NCBI GenBank assembly: GCA_963723235.1 | Contig: CAVRPV010000019.1 | Coordinates: 18,077-82,076 of the forward strand | Length of the DNA stretch: 64,000 nucleotides | Direction of reading: 5' to 3' | DNA from: an uncultured delta proteobacterium | Lineage (GTDB): Bacteria > Desulfobacterota > WTBG01 > CAIYCZ01 > CAIRTM01 | Part shown: one piece after another, positions 2,176 to 24,071 of the stretch | Numbering within the stretch: the first letter of the stretch is position 1 | Layout: each line of letters starts with the position of its first letter | Position numbers and translations under genes: made by a program | The notes under the pieces: generated by a model | Databases searched by the model: none | Told to the model about the DNA's origin: nothing | The model's input: only the letters and a program-made list of their open reading frames with translations

Positions 2176-2916
2176 ATGCACACCATCAAGGATCTTCCCG
2201 TCAAGGGCTTTATTGATACGTCGTTCGTCGACTGGGCCGGAAAGATCTGCGCGGTCATGTTCTTTCCCCTGTGTAACTTCCGCTGCCCCTACTGTCACAA
2301 CGCCGACCTGGTTTTGCGGCCGGATGACATTAAAACCATCGAAATGGAAAGCATTTTCGCACGGCTGGATGAGCTGCGCGGCTGGATTGACGGAGTGTGC
2401 GTGACCGGCGGAGAACCGACTCTGCAGCCCAGGCTGCGCAGACTGCTGGAGGTTCTGCGTGCGGCCGGTTTTCAAACCAAGCTCGACACCAACGGCAGCA
2501 ATCCGGAAGTGCTGCGCGAACTGATTGACGCGGGCCTGCTTGATTATGTTGCCATGGATGTAAAGTCATGCCTGAATGAAAACAGCTACTGCAAGGTCAC
2601 CAATGTTGCCGAGAGCATGCTGAACAGGGTGCGCACAAGCATTGACCTGCTGATTGAAGGCCGCGTGGACTATGAGTTCCGGGTTACGGTTGTGCCCGCA
2701 TATCACGGCCCGGAGGATATTTACCAGCTTGCGCGTGACTTGAGCGGAGCAGCGCGGCTGCGCCTGCAAAATTTCAAACCCGGGGCCTCGATTCTTGATC
2801 CGGCCCTGAAAACCGTCACGCCTTACACGCCGGAAGATCTGGCAAGCCTGCAGCTTCGCGTCGATGAACTGATGTTTAAACCCGCCCCGTCCCGCAGGAC
2901 TACGTCCTGGCAGTAA
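2176..2916 (+). CDS. nrdG: Anaerobic ribonucleotide reductase activating protein (radical SAM)
   Basis: CNFRCPYCHN radical-SAM cluster motif, GGEPTL motif, position downstream of nrdD. Confidence 0.9.
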   Translation: MHTIKDLPVKGFIDTSFVDWAGKICAVMFFPLCNFRCPYCHNADLVLRPDDIKTIEMESIFARLDELRGWIDGVCVTGGEPTLQPRLRRLLEVLRAAGFQTKLDTNGSNPEVLRELIDAGLLDYVAMDVKSCLNENSYCKVTNVAESMLNRVRTSIDLLIEGRVDYEFRVTVVPAYHGPEDIYQLARDLSGAARLRLQNFKPGASILDPALKTVTPYTPEDLASLQLRVDELMFKPAPSRRTTSWQ

Positions 2917-2960
2917 CCATTGAGTACTCGCAGTTCAGCTGTTTCCTCTCACGCCATAGC

Positions 2961-3113
2961 AACTTTTTAAAAAATTTTTACGGCTGTTCAAAAATAGTCT
3001 AGCTGCAGGCGCGCACAATCATTTGGAGGGGCACGGCATGCCGTGTCCCTACAGTATCGCCTGCAGAGATCCCGCTGCATCAATGGGGCAAATAGGCTTT
3101 TTTCAACAGCCTG
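2961..3113 (+). repeat. Family-1 inverted-arm element, copy A (palindrome-module variant)
   Basis: GGCTGTTCAAAAA at 2982 and TTTTTTCAACAGCCTG ending at 3113. Internal GGGGCACGGCATGCCGTGTCCC palindrome. Lies between convergent nrdG and mnmG and abuts the mnmG stop. Confidence 0.85.
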
Positions 3114-5003
3114 TCAGGGGCTCTGGCTGCCTGATCGTTTTTTCAGCACCACCATCAGAATCGACAACGCAGCCGGTGTAATACCCGCTATGCGCGACGC
3201 CTGACCCAGAGATACCGGGCGTACCTGGTGGAGTTTATGCTTCACCTCCGTGCTCAAGCCGGAAATCCCGTCATAACACATATCAGGCGGTATGGCCCAG
3301 GCCTCCAGATGCCTGAACTTTTCAACCATCTGCTGCTGGCGCTGGATATAGCCCTCATATTTTGCGAGGGTTTCTACCTGATAGCTCACCTCCGGATCGA
3401 TACCCGGCGCTGCCAGCGCGGCGCTTTCAAGCGCGGCATAATCGATCTCAGGACGTTTCATGATTTCAAACAGGCTGCAGGGCTGCTTGAGCGGAACAGA
3501 TCCGTAACGGCTGAGCCACTGCTGAATATCCGGTCGTGGGAAAATTTTGACGCTGCGCAAACGCTCAAGCTCATGCTCAACAGCCGCCAGCTTGGCCTGC
3601 AGGCGTTCAAAATCGCCTGTTCCCACCAGGCCCAGGAGGTATCCTTTTTCGCGCAGACGTGCATCAGCATTATCCTCGCGCAGCAAAAGGCGATACTCGG
3701 CCCGCGAGGTAAACATGCGATAGGGCTCCAGCGTCCCGAGCGTGATCAAATCGTCTATCAAGACGCCGATATAGGCCTCGTTGCGCTTGAGCACAAGCGG
3801 CGGCAGGCCCTTGACCCGGCAGGCGGCATTGATCCCTGCCATGAGCCCCTGCGCTCCCGCCTCTTCATACCCGGACGTGCCGTTGATCTGACCGGCCAGA
3901 AACAGGCCCGCAACCGGCTTGGTCTCAAGTGTATGCTTGAGCTGCACCGGGTTGACGTAATCATATTCAATCGCATACCCGGGGCGCATGATCTCAGCCT
4001 CTTCCAAGCCATAAATACTGCGCACCATGCGGTACTGAATGTCAATCGGCAGGCTGGTGGGTATGCCGCTCGGGTAGATCTCAACCGTGTCAAAGCCTTC
4101 GGGCTCAAGAAATATCTGGTGCCGGTCCTTTTCGGGGAAGCGCTTGATTTTATCCTCAATCGAGGGGCAGTAGCGCGCGCCCGTGCCCTGAATAACGCCG
4201 GTATACAGCGGTGAGCGGTCAAAGCCCTCACGAATGATCCGGTGCGTTACTTCATTCGTATAGGTGATATGGCAGGGAATCTGGCGGCGGGGGCCCGGAG
4301 GCGAATTAAATGAAAACGGCTGCGCAGGCTCATCACCGTACTGCGGCTCAAGCACGTCGAAATTGATCGTGCGCGCATCAAGCCGGGGCGTGGTTCCGGT
4401 TTTAAGCCTGCCGGTATGCAGGCCCAGCGCATGCAGCGAATCAGTCAGGGCTGTTGCCGGCAGCTCTCCCAGGCGCCCGGCCGCAAACTGCGTCAGGCCG
4501 ATATGCACCAGCCCGTTCAAAAACGTTCCGGTGGCGATAATGACCGTCCGGGCAAAGAAACGCTCTCCTATGCTTGAAACAAGCCCCTTAACCTCGCCCC
4601 CCTCAACCATGATATTTTCAATCATGGCCTGCTTAATATCAAGGCCGGGAACAGTTTCCAGCTTATTTTTAATCCAGAGCCGAAAACCCTGACGGTCGGC
4701 CTGGGCGCGCGATGACCGTACCGCGGGCCCCTTCTTGGTATTGAGGATACGGAACTGTATGGCGGTGGCGTCAATGGCTTCGCCCATGATGCCGCCCAAA
4801 GCGTCGATTTCCTTGACAAGCTGTCCCTTGGCAAGCCCGCCGATCGCGGGGTTGCAGGACATGAGCCCGATGGTATCGAGCTGTATGGTGGTCAACAGCG
4901 TGCGGCAGCCCATTGTTGCGGCCGCGTGTGCGGCTTCATAGCCGGCATGCCCGCCGCCCACCACAATCACATCATACGTTACCGGATGATCAAATGCCTG
5001 CAT
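3114..5003 (-). CDS. mnmG: tRNA uridine-5-carboxymethylaminomethyl modification enzyme MnmG/GidA
   Basis: 629 aa. N-terminal FAD motif [14 protein letters not shown] and full-length MnmG-like sequence ([27 protein letters not shown]). Confidence 0.95.
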
Positions 5004-15459: not shown

Positions 15460-16221
15460 TTAGAACTCCGCCGAGGGCGGATAGCTCAGATCCACCAGAA
15501 CGCCGGGCGGTATGCCGACGCCAAGTCCCATTTTCACGGCCACATCCTGCAGGGTAAGATACTCAAGCCAGCGCCCGTTCCTGCGAAGCTTCTGTTTTAC
15601 CTCGGCCTGTGTATAGGGCCTGTCCTTGCTGCCTTCAAGCACATACATATAGCCGTCAAAAAATGCGCGGTACGCGGCGATAAAAAGATCGAGCTTCTCC
15701 GGGCCAAGGTGCATGAGCCTGCACCCGGCCTCCGCCGCAAGCGATGCACCCCAGTGCTCCATGCGATAATGATCGGCGAGGCCCGCGCGCAGGGCCTTTG
15801 TATCAACGCCGAATGTTTCGGCAACACAGTCCATGGCCGTGCGGGCAGCCGCATACGTTTGAGGGTCAGAAACTGCCGGAAAAACATCAAGCATCATATG
15901 ATAGGGGCCCTCGCCGGTCATGCCCCATTCCGTATTGAAATGGCCCATGGGGCACCAGGGGTTTACCGGAAAAATCTCCACCTGAAAGACCATGTAGTCA
16001 ATCACCCGGTCCAGCTCCGGCGGCTTCACCTGGTTGAGCTTCATGTGGGTAACGCTTGCCTTCTCTATGCAGCCGCCCCGAATGACGGCGACATCGGCCT
16101 GGCCCACCTTGAACGGCACGGTTGTGCGAACCAGCTCGCCGCCGCCCGAGGCCTCAAGCAAAGCCCGGATAACCGATTCGCGCGTTTCTTCGACAAACGA
16201 GAAGATTTTCTGGTCTTTCAT
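15460..16221 (-). CDS. Coproporphyrinogen III oxidase (HemF)-like family protein, divergent and short
   Basis: 253 aa. It aligns by eye to HemF blocks: VIRGGCIEKASV (cf. VLRNGGVFEQAGV), PVNPWCPMGHFN (cf. PHNPYVPTSHAN), RRNGRWLEYLTL...LVDLSYPP (cf. RRGRYVEFNLV...ILMSMPP). The central RGIGGLFFD block is not conserved. Confidence 0.55.
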   Translation of the reverse strand: MKDQKIFSFVEETRESVIRALLEASGGGELVRTTVPFKVGQADVAVIRGGCIEKASVTHMKLNQVKPPELDRVIDYMVFQVEIFPVNPWCPMGHFNTEWGMTGEGPYHMMLDVFPAVSDPQTYAAARTAMDCVAETFGVDTKALRAGLADHYRMEHWGASLAAEAGCRLMHLGPEKLDLFIAAYRAFFDGYMYVLEGSKDRPYTQAEVKQKLRRNGRWLEYLTLQDVAVKMGLGVGIPPGVLVDLSYPPSAEF

Positions 16222-16384: not shown

Positions 16385-17074
16385 CTAGTTCTTCTCGCTG
16401 CCAATGAAACGATAGATCAAAGCACCGAGAATAGCCCCAACAATCGGGGCCAGCCAGAAAAGCCACAGCTGTGAAACCGCCCAACCACCGACAAATAGGG
16501 CAACACCGGTACTGCGTGCAGGGTTAACGGAGGTGTTTGTAACCGGTATGCTGATCAGGTGGATGAGCGTCAGGCAAAAGCCGATTGCAATCGGTGCCAT
16601 GCCCTGCGGCGCGCGCTTGTCTGTAGCGCCGAGAATAACGAAGAGAAACATCATGGTCATGACGACTTCAGTAATCAGTGCAGCCAGCAGACCATATCCG
16701 CCCGGGGAATGTTCACCGTAGCCGTTTGAAGCAAAGCCTGCAGACAGCTCAAAACCCGCCTTACCGCTGGCAATGAGATACAATACACCGCCAGCTACAA
16801 TCCCGCCCAGAACCTGGGCAATGATGTAGGGCAGCAGCTCTTTGCCCGGGAAACGACCACCGGCCCAGAGACCAAAAGAAACCGCAGGGTTGAGATGACA
16901 GCCGGATATGTGCCCGATAGCGAAGGCCATCGTCATGACAGTCAAGCCAAATGCCAGTGCAACGCCAAGCAAACCAATGCCCACATTCGGGAACGCGGCT
17001 GCCAGAACAGCACTGCCGCATCCGCCTAACACCAGCCAGAAAGTTCCAATGAATTCAGCACAATACTTTTTCAT
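16385..17074 (-). CDS. aqpZ: Aquaporin Z
   Basis: 229 aa. Two NPA boxes (HLNPAVS, SVNPARS) and an AqpZ-like sequence throughout. Confidence 0.93.
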
Positions 17075-17198: not shown

Positions 17199-18152
17199 TC
17201 ACACGCCTTCGCCCAGCAACAGCGCCAGAAGGGCTTTTGCGGTGTGCAGCCTGTTGCCGGCCTCTTCAAACACGACAGAGTTTGCGCCGTCGATAACCTC
17301 ATCCGTCACCTCTTCCCCCCGTCGGGCCGGAAGGCAATGCATGAACACGGCGTCCTGCTTTGCCCAGGACATGACGTCCGCATTGATTTGAAACGGCATG
17401 AAGTCCGCAAGTTTTTTCCTGGTTTCATCCTCGGAAACTTTCGTTCTCTGCATGCTGGTGAACGTAACGCCAACAACGATATCCGCACCCGACATGGCCG
17501 TTCTCAGGTCATGCGTTACCGAAAACGAACCCCCGGTTTCTTTATTGCGTGCATCGATCCATTCTTGTGCAGCCCGGTCAAATGCGTATCCCTGCGGAAT
17601 CGCGCAGGTCATTTCAAGGCCGAAGATTGCGCTCATAATGCCCCAGGAATATGCCATGTTCCAGACATCGCCCACAAAACCGATCTTCAGATCGTGCAGT
17701 CTCCCCTTTTTTTCTCTGATGGTCTGAAGATCGGCCAGAAGCTGCAGCGGATGGCGCTCATTGGTGAGGCCGTTGATCACCGGCCTGGCCATATATGCTG
17801 CGAATTCCTCGATCCGTCGCTGCTCAAACGAGCGGATCACCAGCGCATCGCAGTACTGATCGATCACCCGTGCCGTGTCCGGTATTGACTCGCCCCGTGC
17901 GAGCTGCATTGATGCAGCCTCCATCGGGCACATCGTGATGCCCAGATGAGCGCCGGCAACCAGGAAGGAAAGCCGGGTGCGGGTCGAATGCTTTTCAAAA
18001 ATCATGGCAACCGTTTTCCCGCGCAGCGAGTCATGCGGTTCATGCCTTTTAAGTTTGGCCTTGTATTCGTCGGCAGAATCCAGAATTGCAATGATTTCAT
18101 CTCTGGTGAAATCCTGCAGCGTTAAAAAATCCCGCCCCGTAAATTCGCGCAT
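17199..18152 (-). CDS. Ornithine/aspartate carbamoyltransferase family protein with atypical second-substrate motifs
   Basis: STRTR, HPLQ and HCLP carbamoyl-phosphate/fold motifs are present. The usual DVWxSMG loop reads VTFTSMQ, and GDxxNN reads GDVWNMAYSW. Start taken at MREFTGRDF (18152); an alternative ATG is at 18167. Confidence 0.75.
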   Translation of the reverse strand: MREFTGRDFLTLQDFTRDEIIAILDSADEYKAKLKRHEPHDSLRGKTVAMIFEKHSTRTRLSFLVAGAHLGITMCPMEAASMQLARGESIPDTARVIDQYCDALVIRSFEQRRIEEFAAYMARPVINGLTNERHPLQLLADLQTIREKKGRLHDLKIGFVGDVWNMAYSWGIMSAIFGLEMTCAIPQGYAFDRAAQEWIDARNKETGGSFSVTHDLRTAMSGADIVVGVTFTSMQRTKVSEDETRKKLADFMPFQINADVMSWAKQDAVFMHCLPARRGEEVTDEVIDGANSVVFEEAGNRLHTAKALLALLLGEGV

Positions 18153-18283
18153 AGCGCATACCCGCATGATGTACTCGATATGAATCCCGTGGATTCAAGC
18201 GTGCATTTCAACGTGTGCTTGCAGCCGTTTTCCTGAATGGTTGCCTGTACCCGGCTGTATTGTCGTAATCGCCCCTGCTGTTG

Positions 18284-20836
18284 TCAAGAGGATTTCCCCT
18301 GGCTCTGCGGCATGAGCAGCCTGAGCTTCATCAGCCATTGGCTGTTCCAGGGTGATCGAATGGTTTCCTCATGCAGCACGGTATCAATGGAGTGCAACTC
18401 GGCGTCCGGACAAAACCTTTTCCAGTCAGACTGCAGCAGGGCGGGATGCTCTGTGCGAAAAAAAAGGATGGTTCTGCCACGGTAGGCAGGCGCAGCATAG
18501 CGTGCAGCAGCGTCGTTATAGAAGGTTTCGATGTGGAATATCCGATGCAGGTCCGAGAGCCTGTTCGTAATCCTGAACAGGGCAAATGCGGTTGTGCGCT
18601 GAAGCCATGTATTGAGGGACAGCATATCAAATGCCAGCAGATACAGTATCTGCACGATTGTGTCCTGCATGCGCGAGGGGTGGATTGCGCGGTAATATCG
18701 CAGCATCCTTCTCAGGAGCGGTCTCTTCCTGGTGCGTGCGTCCACAAAATGCGGATCGATCAGGAACAGCAGGGGAACCTCCTCTCCCGCAGCCCGCAAT
18801 TGGCGTGCGGCCTCGATCGCGATCAAACCGCCGATGGAGTACCCTGCCAGATAATACGGCCCGCTGCGCATGCATTGCCTGATCTGCTGAACATAGTCTG
18901 CGGCCATTTCCTCAATCGTCACAAACAGCCTTTCGTGTGCGGGCATTCTCTCAAAATAAGTCTCCAGCGGGACAAGGGGGATATCCTGCGGGTTGAACTG
19001 GCAGAGAATCCAGAAAATTGGCGTCTGCTGCGCCGAAGGCATCAGGCGATTCAGGGAATGCTCTGTTCTGTTTTCAACCAGCTCTGCCTGAGCGGCGATG
19101 GTGCTGTGCCGGTACAGCATGCTGAGGGGGAAACTCAGGCCGGTCTGTTTTTCGATCATCCTGAGCAGCGTCGTCGCTTGCAGCGAATCCCCGCCTGCTT
19201 CAAAAAAGTCGTTGTGCACGCCGATCTTTGCAACCCCGAGAATCTTTTGCCAGAGCCCGGCCAGCATGCCCTCTGACACTGAGCGTGCGGCGACGTATTC
19301 TTTTTCCACGGCCTGCACTTCAGCAGCCTGCAGCCTTTCAAGCGCGCCGATACGCTGCGGTTTGCCGGTCGGGCCCAGGGGCAGGGATTCGGCAAAAAAT
19401 ACGGTCCGGGGAACCTTGAAAACCGGAAGGCGCTCAAGACAAAAATCAAGCAGCTCGGCACGCGAAACAGACCCGCCTTTTTTGACGACAACAGCGGCGG
19501 CGATATCCTCCCCCAGGGTTGCGTGGGGAATGGAAAAGGCCATTGCCTCGGCAACGCAGGGATGGTCCTGGATGACTAGATCGATTTCACGCGGTGATAT
19601 TTTTTCGCCGCCGCGGTTTATGATCTCCTTCAGGCGCCCGGTAAGAAACAGATAGCCATCCTCGTCCAGATATCCGAGGTCTCCGGTATGAAACCAGCCG
19701 TGCGCAAAAGTCCGCGTGTTGGCTTCCGGATCGTCTTCATAGCCGGCCATGATGTTCTCTCCCTGCACCACGACCTCTCCTGCCGTGCCCGCCCCGAGCA
19801 GGTTCCCGGCCTCATCCATGATGGCGACCCTGGGCCCGACCGATGTGCCAGTTGAGCCGGCCTTTCTGATGCCCGGAGGCAGGGGGTTGGTTGTGATCAG
19901 GGGAGCTGCCTCGGTCATGCCGAATGTTTCAATCACCGGCACCCGGAAAAAGGCTTCCAGTTCCTGCTTCAACCGGGGCGACAGGGGGGCGGCCACCGAT
20001 CGGATAAAGCGAAGAGAGGACGCGATGCTCTCTTTCTTTGCCGTCCGGGCATGGCTGAGCAGCATCGACAGCGTTGCCGGGACGCCCTGATACCAGGTCG
20101 GTTGATATTGTTCCAGCAGCCCGAAAAACTCTTCGGCATTGAAACCGTGCGTGGAGATTATACGGCCGCCGCTTGCCAGCGGGGCAAGAAGCAGACAGGC
20201 AAAGCCGCCGATATGAAATTGCGGCATCATGCTCAGGCAGCAGTCATCAGGCCCAAGGGCCAAAGACTGGCAGATATAATTGACCGCAACACAGATATTC
20301 GTATGCGTCAGCGGTACTCTTTTGGGCTGCGCCGTGGTTCCTGATGTGTGCAGGACGATGGCTGTCTGCTGCGGATCGGGCGCAGGCCACGTACAATCAT
20401 CCGCCGACTGCGTGCCGCACCCGTCAGCCGGATCATCCACGAACTGAAGCGGGATCTGCATTTTTTCGGCAGCGGCTCGCGCTGCAGGAACAGCCGAGGA
20501 ATGGGTGATGAGCAGCCGTGCCCTGAGGTCGGCCAGCAATTTCTCCAGTTGCTGCTGCGGGTTAAGGGGATTAAGCGGGGCGCACACGGCAGCCATGCTG
20601 ACGCCCAGCAGGCAGCATGCCATGTCCGGGCCATCAGGCAGCACGATTGCCACGCGATCAGTCGGGCAAATTCCGGCTGATCGCAGATTGCCCACAATCA
20701 CGCGTACGGTTTTGAGCAGGCCGGCATAGGTAAGAGGGCTCCGGCCGGGCCGCTCAAGCGCAATGGCATCCGGATGCCGCCTGGCATTGCTGTAAAAAAG
20801 ATCGAACGTAGTGTTAAAAAGAGTAGATGACGGCAT
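18284..20836 (-). CDS. Stand-alone NRPS-like tridomain enzyme: adenylation - carrier (PCP) - thioesterase
   Basis: 850 aa. A-domain cores LHTSGTTAQPKRV, FHTGDLGY, GRLKEIINRGGEKISP and PTGKPQR. Carrier motif FFEAGGDSLQA. Alpha/beta-hydrolase GYSIGG nucleophile elbow. No condensation domain. Confidence 0.85.
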   Translation of the reverse strand: MPSSTLFNTTFDLFYSNARRHPDAIALERPGRSPLTYAGLLKTVRVIVGNLRSAGICPTDRVAIVLPDGPDMACCLLGVSMAAVCAPLNPLNPQQQLEKLLADLRARLLITHSSAVPAARAAAEKMQIPLQFVDDPADGCGTQSADDCTWPAPDPQQTAIVLHTSGTTAQPKRVPLTHTNICVAVNYICQSLALGPDDCCLSMMPQFHIGGFACLLLAPLASGGRIISTHGFNAEEFFGLLEQYQPTWYQGVPATLSMLLSHARTAKKESIASSLRFIRSVAAPLSPRLKQELEAFFRVPVIETFGMTEAAPLITTNPLPPGIRKAGSTGTSVGPRVAIMDEAGNLLGAGTAGEVVVQGENIMAGYEDDPEANTRTFAHGWFHTGDLGYLDEDGYLFLTGRLKEIINRGGEKISPREIDLVIQDHPCVAEAMAFSIPHATLGEDIAAAVVVKKGGSVSRAELLDFCLERLPVFKVPRTVFFAESLPLGPTGKPQRIGALERLQAAEVQAVEKEYVAARSVSEGMLAGLWQKILGVAKIGVHNDFFEAGGDSLQATTLLRMIEKQTGLSFPLSMLYRHSTIAAQAELVENRTEHSLNRLMPSAQQTPIFWILCQFNPQDIPLVPLETYFERMPAHERLFVTIEEMAADYVQQIRQCMRSGPYYLAGYSIGGLIAIEAARQLRAAGEEVPLLFLIDPHFVDARTRKRPLLRRMLRYYRAIHPSRMQDTIVQILYLLAFDMLSLNTWLQRTTAFALFRITNRLSDLHRIFHIETFYNDAAARYAAPAYRGRTILFFRTEHPALLQSDWKRFCPDAELHSIDTVLHEETIRSPWNSQWLMKLRLLMPQSQGKSS

Positions 20837-20888: not shown

Positions 20889-21662
20889 TTACAACCCTCT
20901 CGTTTTCCTGATCTGCTCATAGGCCCCCTGAATCTCCTGAAAGCGTTTGGTCGCAAAAGCTATGAATTCATCCGGAAGCCCCTTGGCGATGATCGTGTCA
21001 GGGTGAAACTCTTTCACAAGTTTTTTGTAACTCCCTTTAATCTCCTCGTCCGTGCTCTGGGCCGTGCAGTTCAGCATGTGGTAATGTTTGTCATCATTCT
21101 TAAAGTGGCGCGCCTGTATGCTGTCAAACATATTGTCCGATATCCGGAAAATATCCTGAACCGTTCTGATCGCTTTTTCTTCCGCAGGGTGCATAGCACC
21201 GTCGGCAGCAGCCACCTGAAACAGAACATCCAGAAAGGAGCATAACAACGTCGGCTCTGCCTGCGTCATCTGGTAAAACTGAGCGGCGAAATCCTCAAGC
21301 GAGTACGGCGAGCTTTTGGCCTCGTTGAAAACACGCCGCGCGAATACTTTCTCTTCAGCTGAAACCGGTAACCCGTTAATCAAACGCTCGACAACAGCAA
21401 GCTCCTCCGGCGTGACAGCGCCGTCAGCCTTGGCAAGCTTAGCCAGCATTGACAGCATGCACACAAAGTACGCCGCCTGATTCCGCGACACATTATCAAG
21501 CAGTGTCCCTGATTGCTGAAAAAGCTGCCGCCGTGCGGTCTGCTGTTTATCTATTAATTGATGCCCAAGTGCCGCACCCAGAACAGCGCCGAGCGGCCCG
21601 CCGAACATCATCCCCAAAGATCCCAATGCAATCTTTCCAAACCAGGACATACCGGCAATCAC
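20889..21662 (-). CDS. djlA: DjlA-type co-chaperone (TM + TerB-like domain + C-terminal J domain)
   Basis: N-terminal Gly-rich TM segment. C-terminal J domain YHMLNCTAQSTDEEIKGSYKKLVKEFHPD. Confidence 0.8.
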   Translation of the reverse strand: MIAGMSWFGKIALGSLGMMFGGPLGAVLGAALGHQLIDKQQTARRQLFQQSGTLLDNVSRNQAAYFVCMLSMLAKLAKADGAVTPEELAVVERLINGLPVSAEEKVFARRVFNEAKSSPYSLEDFAAQFYQMTQAEPTLLCSFLDVLFQVAAADGAMHPAEEKAIRTVQDIFRISDNMFDSIQARHFKNDDKHYHMLNCTAQSTDEEIKGSYKKLVKEFHPDTIIAKGLPDEFIAFATKRFQEIQGAYEQIRKTRGL

Positions 21663-21758: not shown

Positions 21759-23699
21759 TTATTTTTTGTAGTAGGTATAGCCCCGCAGCCCGGACTCGTA
21801 GGCGTGCATGATTTTTCGCCGCTCGGCGCCCGTGATCGTGCCCTCGCGCACCGCGTTCTCAGCGGCCTGACGGAACTGGTTCATGAGAACCTTGGTATCG
21901 TACTCAACGTAGGTAAGCACATCGGCGATGGAATCGCCTTCAAGCTCACGCACGAAGTCAAAGCTCCCGTCCTCGTTCATCCGCACGCTCACGATGTTGG
22001 TGTCGCCCAGCAGGTTGTGCAGATCGCCCAGGGTTTCCTGATAGGCCCCGACCAGGAATACGCCCATGAAGTATTCCTCTCCGGGCTTTACCTCGTGCAG
22101 CGGCAGAGTGCTGCGCACGTCGTGCAAATCGATGAACCGGTCTATCTTGCCGTCGGAGTCGCAGGTAATATCGGCCAGGATGGCCCTGCGGGTCGGGCAC
22201 TCATTGAGCCGGTGCACGGGCATGATGGGAAACAGCTGGTCGATGGCCCAGGAGTCCGGCAGCGACTGGAATATGCTGAAATTGCAATAGTAGATATCGG
22301 CCAGGGCGATGTCGATGCCTTCAAGCTCGACCGGCACCTGCTTGATTTTTTTCACCTCACGGGCGATTTTGTTGATGATGTTCCAGAAAACCGTCTCGCA
22401 CAGAGAGCGCTCGCGCAGGCTGATCTCTCCATGCCTGAAAAGCCTCTGCACCTCATCCTTGTAATACAGGGCATCGTTATAATACTCCTGTATGTTCTTG
22501 GTGTTCACCGATGTGTAGACATCCAGCAGGTTCCGCAGCATCTCATGGGAGTCGGCAGGCAGCGTATCCGGTATGCTGAGCGCGTCAAAGCGGCTGACAT
22601 CAAGAATGTTGAACAGCAGAACCGAGTAGTGCGCCACGGTTGCCCGGCCCGACTCGGTTATGATGGTCGGGTGCGGCAGCTGCTTTTCATCGAGGCTCGC
22701 CATGACGATCTCGATGATGTCGGCGCAGTACTCATTCACCGAGTAGTTGCGGCTGCAGCGGAAGTTGGTCTGCGAGCCGTCATAGTCGACGGCCAGGCCG
22801 CCGCCCAGGTCCAGATAGCCCATGGGCGCGCCTTCCATCACCAGCTCGGTGTAGTAACGGCAGGCCTCGTCCACGCCCGCCCGAATGTCCCTGATATTGG
22901 GTATCTGGGAGCCCAGATGATAGTGCAGAAGCTGGAGGCAGTCAGTCATGTCTTCCTGCTTGAGCCTGTCAACCAGCGCGATTATTTCCGAGGTATTCAG
23001 GCCGAACAGGCTCCGGTCTCCGCCTGATTCTGCCCAGTGACCGCCGGCCTTGAGTGAAATTTTCAGCCGCACGCCGAGCCGGGGGGTGATGCCGAGTTCT
23101 TTGGCCCTGCGCAGCACAAGATCAAGCTCGCACGGCATCTCGATCACGATGAAGCATTTAAAACCGAGCTTGATGGCGTACAGGGCGAGGTCGATGAACT
23201 TCTCGTCTTTGTAGCCATTGCAGATAATGCAGGCCTCGGGATCCTTGATCATGGATATGGCGATAATAAGCTCGGCCTTGCTCCCGGCCTCAAGGCCGTG
23301 GTGATAGCTGGCGCCGAAGCGGGTAATCTCCTCGATCACCTGCTGCTGCTGGTTTACCTTGATGGGGTAGACACCCCGGTACTGCCCCTTGTAATTACAC
23401 TGTTTGATGGCTTCATTGAAACTCTCGTGCAGGATGGAGAGCTGGGAGTCAAGCATGTTTTCGATGCGCAATAGGACCGGCATCTCAAGCCCGCGCTCTT
23501 TTATCCCCGAAATAATGTCCATCAGGCTGATGGATTGATTCTCCCGCCCCCTGATCGGCGTGGCGACAACCTCACCCTTGTCGGAAATCGAAAAAAAACC
23601 CTTGCCCCAGTTGGGAATGCCGTAGGCCTCTTTTGAGTTTTCAACCGTCCAGCGGTTCAGCTTGCCGTTTTGTATCAGTGACAGTTCTTTTTCGTTCAT
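21759..23699 (-). CDS. speA: Biosynthetic arginine decarboxylase
   Basis: 646 aa. SpeA-like over the full length (WTVENSKEAYGIPNWGKGFF..., YPIKVNQQ, LDLGGGLAVDYDG). Confidence 0.93.
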   Translation of the reverse strand: MNEKELSLIQNGKLNRWTVENSKEAYGIPNWGKGFFSISDKGEVVATPIRGRENQSISLMDIISGIKERGLEMPVLLRIENMLDSQLSILHESFNEAIKQCNYKGQYRGVYPIKVNQQQQVIEEITRFGASYHHGLEAGSKAELIIAISMIKDPEACIICNGYKDEKFIDLALYAIKLGFKCFIVIEMPCELDLVLRRAKELGITPRLGVRLKISLKAGGHWAESGGDRSLFGLNTSEIIALVDRLKQEDMTDCLQLLHYHLGSQIPNIRDIRAGVDEACRYYTELVMEGAPMGYLDLGGGLAVDYDGSQTNFRCSRNYSVNEYCADIIEIVMASLDEKQLPHPTIITESGRATVAHYSVLLFNILDVSRFDALSIPDTLPADSHEMLRNLLDVYTSVNTKNIQEYYNDALYYKDEVQRLFRHGEISLRERSLCETVFWNIINKIAREVKKIKQVPVELEGIDIALADIYYCNFSIFQSLPDSWAIDQLFPIMPVHRLNECPTRRAILADITCDSDGKIDRFIDLHDVRSTLPLHEVKPGEEYFMGVFLVGAYQETLGDLHNLLGDTNIVSVRMNEDGSFDFVRELEGDSIADVLTYVEYDTKVLMNQFRQAAENAVREGTITGAERRKIMHAYESGLRGYTYYKK

Positions 23700-23714: not shown

Positions 23715-23892
23715 GGGTGTTGTAAAAGTCTTTTTTTACAGGCTGTTCAAAAATGCGCAGATGCACAGGCGCCCGATATCATTTGTAAGGGCACGGCATG
23801 CCGTGCCCTTACCGTACGCCGCAGTGATCCCGCCATGGCGGGAATAAGCGCAATCCCGCTGCAGCGGGACAGGTGTGCTTTTTTCAACAGCC
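23715..23892 (+). repeat. Family-1 element, copy E (palindrome module + two GGGA hairpins)
   Basis: Outer arm GGGTGTTGTAAAAGTC and left arm at 23741. GTAAGGGCACGGCATGCCGTGCCCTTAC at 23785..23812. TCCCGCCATGGCGGGA and TCCCGCTGCAGCGGGA hairpins. Right arm ends at 23892. Confidence 0.9.
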
Positions 23893-24071
23893 TTCGCGAG
23901 GGCACATTATACCAGTAAACGCACTTCATATCCACAGTTCACTGACATCACGCCAAAAAAACCGCTCACGCTCCGGCCTTTCAATTTTCTTTGCGAACCG
24001 GTAAACAGTCAAGTATACTGTTCCCCGCAACTGCCGCACAACAGACCCATGCTCTATGAAAGGACCATCGA

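Follow-up and report, generated by a model that had tools for sequence, protein, structure and literature searches.

Ornithine transcarbamylases (OTCs; ArgF/ArgI) are set apart from other transcarbamylases by the motif DxxxSMG, and within it Asp231, Ser235 and Met236 bind ornithine, aided by Asn167 and Lys53 (PMC4581275). The OTC branch also holds DPTCase and DBTCase, the diaminopropionate and diaminobutyrate transcarbamylases, which supply the viomycin, zwittermicin and padanamide pathways with ureido amino acids (PMC4581275) and whose partners are multimodular non-ribosomal peptide synthetases (NRPSs) with amino-acid adenylation (A) domains. In the oxalyl-coenzyme A (CoA) synthetase AtAAE3, the oxalate pocket is formed by V215, H216, C288, S289, A313, M314, H319 and K500, of which S289 and H319 contact oxalate and are conserved in oxalyl-CoA synthetases only (PMC8905533). 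Here we describe two adjacent genes on the minus strand of a 64,000-nucleotide stretch of contig CAVRPV010000019.1 from an uncultured delta proteobacterium (assembly GCA_963723235.1; the whole stretch is hereafter the window), which encode an OTC-family transcarbamylase and a stand-alone adenylation-carrier-thioesterase (A-T-TE) enzyme. Judged from gene order across genomes, the two genes are a rare two-gene accessory cassette downstream of djlA. The cassette consists of two uncharacterised sub-branches of well-known enzyme families and, as read from its residues and neighbours, probably makes a small carbamoylated acid. The genes and domains of the pair, in window coordinates, are as follows.

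17199-18167, minus strand: OTC-family transcarbamylase gene (322 aa), a paralogue with an intact carbamoyl-phosphate site
18284-20836, minus strand: A-T-TE gene (850 aa), a stand-alone adenylation, carrier and thioesterase enzyme
19361-20791, minus strand: adenylation domain, residues 16-492, catalytic Lys K492
19076-19264, minus strand: carrier (T) domain, residues 525-587; PF00550, 58.5 bits; phosphopantetheine serine S551 in GGDSL
18287-19039, minus strand: thioesterase domain, residues ~600-850; PF00975, 71.5 bits; S667 (GYSIGG), D694 and H822

The transcarbamylase and its second-substrate site

We found both OTC/ATC domains in the transcarbamylase protein, whose true start is probably Met6 at 18152, since its homologues begin MREF. 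The carbamoyl-phosphate site is complete, with STRTR at 61-65, R112, HPLQ at 139-142, HCLP at 277-280 and R306, and the residues S61-R65, R112, H139/Q142, C278 and R306 are invariant across the alignment. The nearest solved relative is the OTC of Pyrococcus furiosus (1A1S/1PVV, 290 bits), with which the protein shares, by sequence, the same unknotted OTC-branch fold; the Giardia structure 3GRF reaches just 134 bits. Like OTC, it keeps STRTR, HPxQ, HCLP, Arg306, the Lys of FxKxSxRT and Asn170. Unlike OTC, it reads GDVWNMAYSW (166-175) where the P. furiosus enzyme has GDGNNVAHS, that is GDVWN for GDGNN, and VTFTSMQR (234-241) followed by a 1-3 residue insertion where the P. furiosus enzyme has TDVWASMGQE. 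A sequence-only reading of this locus had pointed to the same retained motifs (STRTR, HPLQ, HCLP) and altered ones (TSMQ, GDVWNMAYSW), and all of them were located at these positions.

Upon closer examination of the second-substrate site, we find that DxxxSMG is absent and that its positions read V234-T-F-T-S238-M239-Q240-R241. This loop is shared by a clade of relatives with the motifs GD[VAIT]WNM..SW and, in the 240's loop, [VI]TF[TVI]SM[QTAR]R with an insertion of 1-3 residues after it. The position of the Asp (D231 of E. coli OTC) is V or I in every clade member, that of the SMG Gly is Q, T, A or R, and the Arg after SM-x (Arg241 in the window protein) is conserved across the clade (SMxR). 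The Lys of FxKxSxRT and the equivalent of Asn167 are retained (FEKHSTRT, K59 and N170), as is Cys278. As judged from these alignments, the second-substrate site is altered across the whole transcarbamylase clade. The nearest OTC-annotated proteins (P0137-P0240; 49-55% identity; Bathyarchaeia and Bacillota) read GDxWNV and NTWHSMG, with Asn in place of the usual ornithine-binding Asp. By this comparison, part of the GDVWN oddity is a lineage trait common to the nearest OTC-annotated proteins (GDxWNV), and the clade-specific change is the loss of the Asp and the Gly from DxxxSMG. The earlier proposal of an acceptor other than ornithine thus stands in part: the housekeeping ArgF is a separate enzyme and the second-substrate site is changed clade-wide, but the GDVWN motif, one of the grounds given for it, is partly inherited with the lineage.

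With the curated hidden Markov models (HMMs), the protein passes the OTC cut-offs (TIGR00658, 338.2 vs 280.85 bits; NF001986, 357.3 vs 306) and stays below those of the putrescine-transcarbamylase model TIGR04384 (254.8 bits vs 500), the acetylornithine-transcarbamylase model NF003384 (157 bits vs 288) and the aspartate- and YgeW-transcarbamylase models. Putrescine transcarbamylase (E. faecalis AgcB, 4A8H/3TXX; 184 bits) is also an OTC-branch paralogue with an altered 230's/240's loop. Its marks are Gln in FxQxSxRT, a (Y/W)(G/W)(V/L/I)x loop and ~20 extra C-terminal residues (PMC4581275), whereas the window protein has Lys59 (FEKHSTRT) and the VTFTSMQR loop and ends at residue 322 together with the OTC alignment. 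The knotted acetyl- and succinyl-ornithine transcarbamylases differ from it as well, as it has no 120's insertion relative to unknotted OTCs and falls below the NF003384 cut-off. DPTCase and DBTCase, for their part, are OTC-branch enzymes in which the Asp of DxxxSMG is likewise replaced, and a ureido acid made for an assembly line serves as our working analogy for the pair. Even so, their signatures, (T/S)RWQTTG or TRWQSMG together with HDLP, are not those of the window protein (VTFTSMQR, HCLP), and in place of their multimodular NRPS partners with amino-acid A domains it has a stand-alone A-T-TE enzyme of the oxalyl-CoA-synthetase type.

A second OTC was found in the same genome (G000; 2.8 Mb, 20 contigs, 83% complete). 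It lies on contig C6, scores 410.6 bits, has the motifs GDGNNVANSW and DTWVSMG, and belongs to an argB-argD-argF-argG-argH operon, so that the window gene is an additional copy beside the argF operon, being neither the sole OTC gene nor part of an arg operon. The two proteins are 42% identical, with ArgF on a long and separate tree branch, and a canonical DxxxSMG OTC is likewise present in all three genomes with a clade member that were examined (G000, G041 and G042). On these sequence and context grounds, the window transcarbamylase is distinct from the housekeeping ArgF. Among 5.8 billion proteins, about 16 protein clusters match it at 60-97% identity, and the next matches are at 55% or below. 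The A-T-TE-linked transcarbamylases cluster in the tree (support 80/99); the backbone of that tree is unresolved, and the monophyly of the TFxSMxR clade rests on shared motifs and identity and not on a supported node. A scan of GTDB contigs with the transcarbamylase, whose patterns were too window-specific to reach clade members, returned canonical OTCs only, at 48% identity or below.

The A-T-TE enzyme and its adenylation pocket

The Pfam domains of the A-T-TE protein are AMP-binding (16-366), AMP-binding_C (417-492), PP-binding (525-587) and Thioesterase (from 630), with no condensation, reductase or KS domain among them, and the motifs PTGKPQR at 489, GGDSL at 548 and GYSIGG at 665 are present, which bears out the architecture first described for it. 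Domain order, phosphopantetheine serine and thioesterase triad are all those of an A-T-TE enzyme, the triad residues S667, D694 and H822 lying in conserved columns of an alignment of 105 homologues. The nearest solved thioesterases are those of NocB, NRPS4 and Pks13. A phosphopantetheinyl transferase-family (PPTase) frame of 236 aa is found on contig C15 of the genome. Metagenomes and cyanobacteria abound in members of the A-T-TE family, the orthologues at 45-80% identity come from metagenomes only, and we found neither a characterised member of the family nor relevant literature on oxalyl-type A-T-TE enzymes.

The best solved relatives of the A domain are the oxalyl-CoA synthetases (AtAAE3 5IE0-5IE3, LsOCS 6QJZ, yeast Pcs60), with 358 bits to LsOCS 6QJZ and 337 bits to AtAAE3 5IE0, the oxalyl-CoA synthetase match spanning residues 10-495 (E 1e-105), whereas the best NRPS A domain reaches 241 bits, ~120 bits lower. 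By these matches the A domain descends from the oxalyl-CoA-synthetase lineage, in keeping with the acyl/oxalate-CoA-ligase type that had been recognised by eye. The window enzyme differs from the oxalyl-CoA synthetases in that its acyl acceptor is the fused carrier domain, not CoA, and in carrying a fused thioesterase.

We aligned the pocket with HMMER and found the equivalents of the AtAAE3 residues to be I209, G210, V281, A282, G306, M307, P312 and K492. Relative to AtAAE3, Ser289 is replaced by Ala282, His319 by Pro312 and His216 by Gly210, so the Ser289 and His319 that mark oxalyl-CoA synthetases are both missing. Because these oxalate-specific residues are replaced, oxalate is an unlikely substrate of the A-T-TE enzyme, and the pocket, as read from the aligned residues, is larger and apolar compared with that of oxalyl-CoA synthetases. 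The label 'oxalate--CoA ligase' that some sources give to relatives finds no support for the window protein, as the oxalate residues are lost.

In an alignment of 120 A-T-TE sequences, comprising the window protein and its 119 best non-identical matches, 89 have His at the His216 column and Ser at the Ser289 column, and 85 have His at the His319 column. Another 27 share with the window protein a Gly in the His216 column plus a Pro in the His319 column, and 29 share its Ala in the Ser289 column. The residues suggest that homologues keeping His/Ser/His can be read as oxalate-type. About three quarters of the A-T-(TE/other) homologues (P0013-P0120) retain the oxalate-contacting His/Ser/His. These oxalate-type homologues are fused to thioesterase, hexapeptide acyltransferase or condensation domains, are widespread in cyanobacteria and Bryobacteraceae and, going by their pockets, may load oxalate on a carrier protein. 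In about half of the thioesterases of these homologues, Cys replaces the Ser nucleophile. One relative with the pocket IGTAGMP carries an LpxL-type acyltransferase fused in place of the thioesterase.

Linkage, distribution and neighbouring genes

Upon comparing 40 related genomes (same genus, 2; same family, 14; same order or class, the remainder), we found no orthologue of either the A-T-TE or the transcarbamylase gene, and the best matches were the genomes' own ArgF at 44% and unrelated acyl-CoA ligases at 33-36%. The two same-genus genomes carry the flanking genes without the pair: in G001, speA is followed by a 165-aa open reading frame, djlA and then an Hsp33 gene on the opposite strand, and in G002, djlA is followed by a sulfatase gene. 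Because of this, speA-djlA is taken, on gene order, as the older synteny, and the pair as an insertion behind djlA. In a metagenome relative at 80% identity (L003), djlA, the A-T-TE gene and the transcarbamylase gene occur in this order, with lepA and not speA upstream. The proposal that speA and djlA belong to the same unit as the pair is therefore not supported; on this gene order, both are bystanders. The GC fraction of the pair is 0.569 vs 0.548 for the window, and its composition therefore gives no sign of recent transfer. A search around the pair for insertion scars or duplicated 3' ends, as found elsewhere in the window, returned only chance-level short repeats.

The pairing recurs in an unrelated assembly (GCA_964429255.1; L005), where a 66%-identical transcarbamylase gene lies 10 nt ahead of a 45%-identical A-T-TE gene, in inverted order. 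As the linkage recurs in an unrelated genome and canonical argF lies elsewhere, the case of an ArgF-like enzyme with no conserved link to the A-T-TE gene, on which the idea of a linked pair would have been given up, does not apply. In the L005 locus, the transcarbamylase (2248-3204, P0127) reads STRTQ, not STRTR, in its carbamoyl-phosphate loop and Cys (GLCAGG) is the nucleophile of the partner A-T-TE; the gene of a sigma-54-dependent response regulator diverges from the pair, and no sigma-54 promoter match was found in the intergenic region before the pair.

The relatives of each enzyme also have another habitual partner. The window A-T-TE nests among proteins that adjoin a cytosine-deaminase-like amidohydrolase of 371-385 aa, encoded in the same direction or divergently, and, from this arrangement, A-T-TE plus amidohydrolase is a conserved two-gene module in which the transcarbamylase takes the place of the amidohydrolase in the window lineage. 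The amidohydrolase-superfamily partner has NAHLHLDR, HIHID and GSDN motifs and no Pfam match above threshold, its best matches being weak (NF005365, 160 bits; E. coli cytosine deaminase, E 5e-15). Every other clade transcarbamylase with readable context, at 10 or more loci that are chiefly from sediment archaea, is preceded by a 320-aa ADI/DDAH-like hydrolase, often with a class-III aminotransferase upstream of the two. A clade-specific DNA pattern run over metagenome contigs recovered 5 loci, all DDAH-linked and 0 with an A-T-TE gene, and at L055/L056 GctAB-like CoA-transferase subunits lie downstream of the clade transcarbamylase. The loci are as follows.

L045 2159-3316: amidohydrolase next to an A-T-TE relative
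L046 5750-6865, minus strand: amidohydrolase next to an A-T-TE relative
L047 5684-6823, minus strand: amidohydrolase next to an A-T-TE relative
L004 6980-8963; L041 4659-7957; L043 2946-7281; L044 6023-7957; L039, L040, L050-L056: ADI/DDAH-like plus transcarbamylase operon loci

Near the archaeal operons there are often MtaA-like and corrinoid methyltransferase genes, GntC/VioD-like pyridoxal-phosphate enzymes and a GlcD/HdrD-like dehydrogenase. The genome G042 contains a carbamate kinase and six transcarbamylase-family genes.

Around the pair itself, the window holds the following features.

16385-17074, minus strand: aqpZ
20889-21662, minus strand: djlA (NF006948, 180 bits), neighbour at the upstream edge of the insertion
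21759-23699, minus strand: speA, biosynthetic arginine decarboxylase (NF003763, 867 bits), neighbour outside the unit
18259-18287, minus strand: promoter-like site TTGACA-17-GACAAT, a 10/12 consensus match only and not functional evidence

The promoter-like site overlaps the A-T-TE stop codon, upstream of the transcarbamylase gene. The gaps measure 96 nt between speA and djlA, 52 nt between djlA and the A-T-TE gene and 116-131 nt between the A-T-TE and transcarbamylase genes, and no strong terminator-like site was found in the gaps from speA to the transcarbamylase gene. The window's repeat-element family is not represented between 15461 and 23717, hence not in the gaps of the four genes, which agrees with the short, repeat-free gaps of 52-131 bp first described. 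Its closest member, at 23717-23903, lies immediately before the speA start. The repeat element is ~140-190 nt long (GGCTGTTCAAAAATG ... TTTTTCAACAGCC). Just past the outer end of this copy, ~205 nt upstream of the speA start, is the region's best promoter-like match (23934-23906). Downstream of aqpZ, at 15460-16221, is a short HemF-like gene with 55-86% identity in all four related genomes checked; it is also downstream of the pair in L003 and on other contigs in the same-genus genomes.

Proposed function and its alternatives

We favour, at somewhat under an even chance, a pathway that starts with carbamoylation, by the transcarbamylase, of an ornithine-like amine devoid of a free alpha-ammonium group; the neutral acid so formed is then loaded and released by the A-T-TE enzyme, substrate and product alike being inferred. 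Since its carbamoyl-phosphate site is complete, the transcarbamylase would be an active carbamoyl-transfer enzyme. The alpha-ammonium-binding Asp and the SMG Gly are lost, an Arg is gained, and Lys59, Asn170 and Cys278 are kept, and for this reason the acceptor would be a carboxylic acid that carries an ornithine-like terminal amine and no free ammonium at its alpha position; omega-amino acids and alpha-substituted ornithines are examples. The reaction would run in the synthetic direction and yield an omega-ureido acid, as no carbamate kinase or guanidino-hydrolase partner is seen in the genome. The A domain would then adenylate an acid that is neutral and not oxalate, in the simplest case this same ureido acid, and load it on Ser551, from which the Ser-Asp-His thioesterase would release it. 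Attack by the ureido nitrogen would yield a cyclic ureide; alternatively, the acid would be passed to water or to some other acceptor. Cyclising release in padanamide involves the ureido group. Involvement of an acid is also suggested by gene context, namely the CoA-transferase subunits beside the clade member in L055/L056 and the acid-adenylating enzyme here.

Concerning the direction, we found a carbamate kinase in the DDAH-linked genome G042 (373 bits) and none in the A-T-TE-linked genomes G000 and G041, and no amidohydrolase partner, DDAH-like gene or agmatine deiminase in G000 at its 83% completeness. Because of this difference in carbamate kinase, the three genomes suggest that the clade is used catabolically in archaea (ureido compound to amine and carbamoyl phosphate, and on to ATP) and synthetically in the window genome. 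The archaeal ADI/DDAH-like operon may be an undescribed deiminase-type catabolic route; a literature search for a ureidobutyrate or guanidinobutyrate deiminase route returned nothing relevant.

Several observations weigh against the ureido-acid pathway. The acceptor and the acid are deduced from residue changes and gene neighbours only. The transcarbamylase passes the NCBIfam OTC equivalog cut-off (338 vs 281 bits), and the retained Lys59, Asn170 and Cys278 are compatible with ornithine or citrulline. The A-T-TE/transcarbamylase pairing is known from two independent lineages only, and the window and L005 A-T-TE proteins lie on different tree branches and are not mutual closest relatives. The closest A-T-TE relatives are paired with the amidohydrolase, not with a transcarbamylase, and at least 10 clade members are paired with a DDAH/ADI-like gene instead of an A-T-TE gene. 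A promoter-like site (18287-18259) lies between the two genes, the LpxL-type lipid acyltransferase fusion with a similar pocket (IGTAGMP) points to a plain aliphatic rather than a ureido acid, and 83% completeness weakens the absences of carbamate kinase, amidohydrolase and DDAH-like gene.

The alternative that survives best, although we regard it as unlikely, is that the two genes are unrelated, with the transcarbamylase being a second ornithine/citrulline transcarbamylase with an unusual loop and the A-T-TE enzyme doing something else; similarly doubtful is its corollary that the DDAH/ADI-linked clade members form an ordinary arginine or methylarginine deiminase pathway. This explanation is consistent with the OTC cut-offs passed (TIGR00658, 338 vs 281; NF001986, 357 vs 306), with the kept Lys59, Asn170 and Cys278, with the promoter-like site between the genes, with another partner being usual for the A-T-TE relatives, and with the archaeal arrangement of ADI/DDAH-like hydrolase, transcarbamylase and class-III aminotransferase, accompanied by carbamate kinase in G042, which resembles arginine catabolism. 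It is countered by the alpha-amino-binding Asp being V or I in every clade member of a family whose OTCases are defined by DxxxSMG (PMC4581275), by the canonical OTC that co-exists in 3/3 genomes checked, and by the recurrence of the adjacency in a second lineage with a 10-nt gap and a changed gene order.

A less probable alternative is an N-acyl route. Here the A-T-TE enzyme would activate an aliphatic acid of short or medium length, its thioesterase would acylate the alpha-amino group of ornithine, and the transcarbamylase would turn the resulting N-alpha-acyl-ornithine into N-acyl-citrulline, which would make it the unknotted equivalent of acetylornithine transcarbamylase. The route is compatible with an enzyme that has given up the Asp contacting the free alpha-ammonium but retains Lys59 and Asn170 on the carboxylate side, as it is with the apolar A-domain pocket, the similar-pocket relative fused to an LpxL-type acyltransferase, and the aminotransferase of the archaeal operons, which matches best, at 346 bits and below the cut-off, an acetylornithine-aminotransferase-family model. 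Transfer to a free amine, however, is uncommon for a type I thioesterase. Moreover, the known acetyl- and succinyl-ornithine transcarbamylases are knotted and have a proline-rich loop (PMC4581275), and the window protein scores 157 vs 288 bits with the acetylornithine-transcarbamylase model.

A wider unit of speA, djlA, the A-T-TE gene and the transcarbamylase gene, with putrescine or agmatine as acceptor and a polyamine-linked or carbamoylated polyamine product, is highly improbable. Co-directional genes, short repeat-free gaps and the lack of a strong terminator-like site in those gaps would allow it, but the genus also has speA-djlA with no pair behind it, L003 has the pair with no speA next to it, and the putrescine-transcarbamylase signatures fail (TIGR04384, 255 vs 500 bits). 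Furthermore, an agmatinase-family gene was found in G000 and no agmatine deiminase was detected there, so agmatine need not pass via a carbamoyl intermediate, and the polyamine link suggested by the sequence-only reading is not upheld. That the enzyme dimerises aryl 2-oxo acids into a quinone or furanone, as do the A-T-TE synthetases of fungi and Ralstonia (atromentin and polyporic acid synthetases, RalA), has a negligible chance of being correct, as the earlier analogy offers only the shared A-T-TE domain order, whereas the A domain, by its matches, is of the oxalyl-CoA-synthetase lineage (358 vs 241 bits for the best NRPS A domain) and not the NRPS type for aryl 2-oxo acids, all 120 close homologues belong to that lineage, and neither aminotransferase or aryl-acid genes nearby nor any other sign of an aryl 2-oxo acid was found.

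Returning to the ureido-acid pathway, a broader scheme, which we put forward tentatively, is that the clade represents a new second-substrate specificity in the OTC branch. In two bacterial lineages it would have been recruited together with a re-tooled A-T-TE enzyme of the oxalyl-CoA-synthetase type, forming a minimal pathway of two enzymes that makes a small, hitherto undescribed ureido or cyclic-ureide metabolite from carbamoyl phosphate and ATP. In sediment archaea, clade members would catalyse the reverse reaction alongside a short ADI/DDAH-like hydrolase and carbamate kinase, which would add a third deiminase-type, ATP-yielding route to the two for arginine and agmatine.

Transcarbamylases are routinely mis-annotated as ArgF, and the clade here passes the OTC cut-off yet is without the ornithine-recognition motif, with a true ArgF alongside in all genomes checked, making it a concrete candidate for a new acceptor specificity. 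The split of the A-T-TE family by pocket residues, into an oxalate-type majority and an apolar type, yields substrate predictions that can be tested. Should the product of the pair be a ureido acid or cyclic ureide, this would be among the smallest carrier-dependent pathways known and would tie carbamoyl-phosphate chemistry to thiotemplate release beyond the actinomycete antibiotic clusters.

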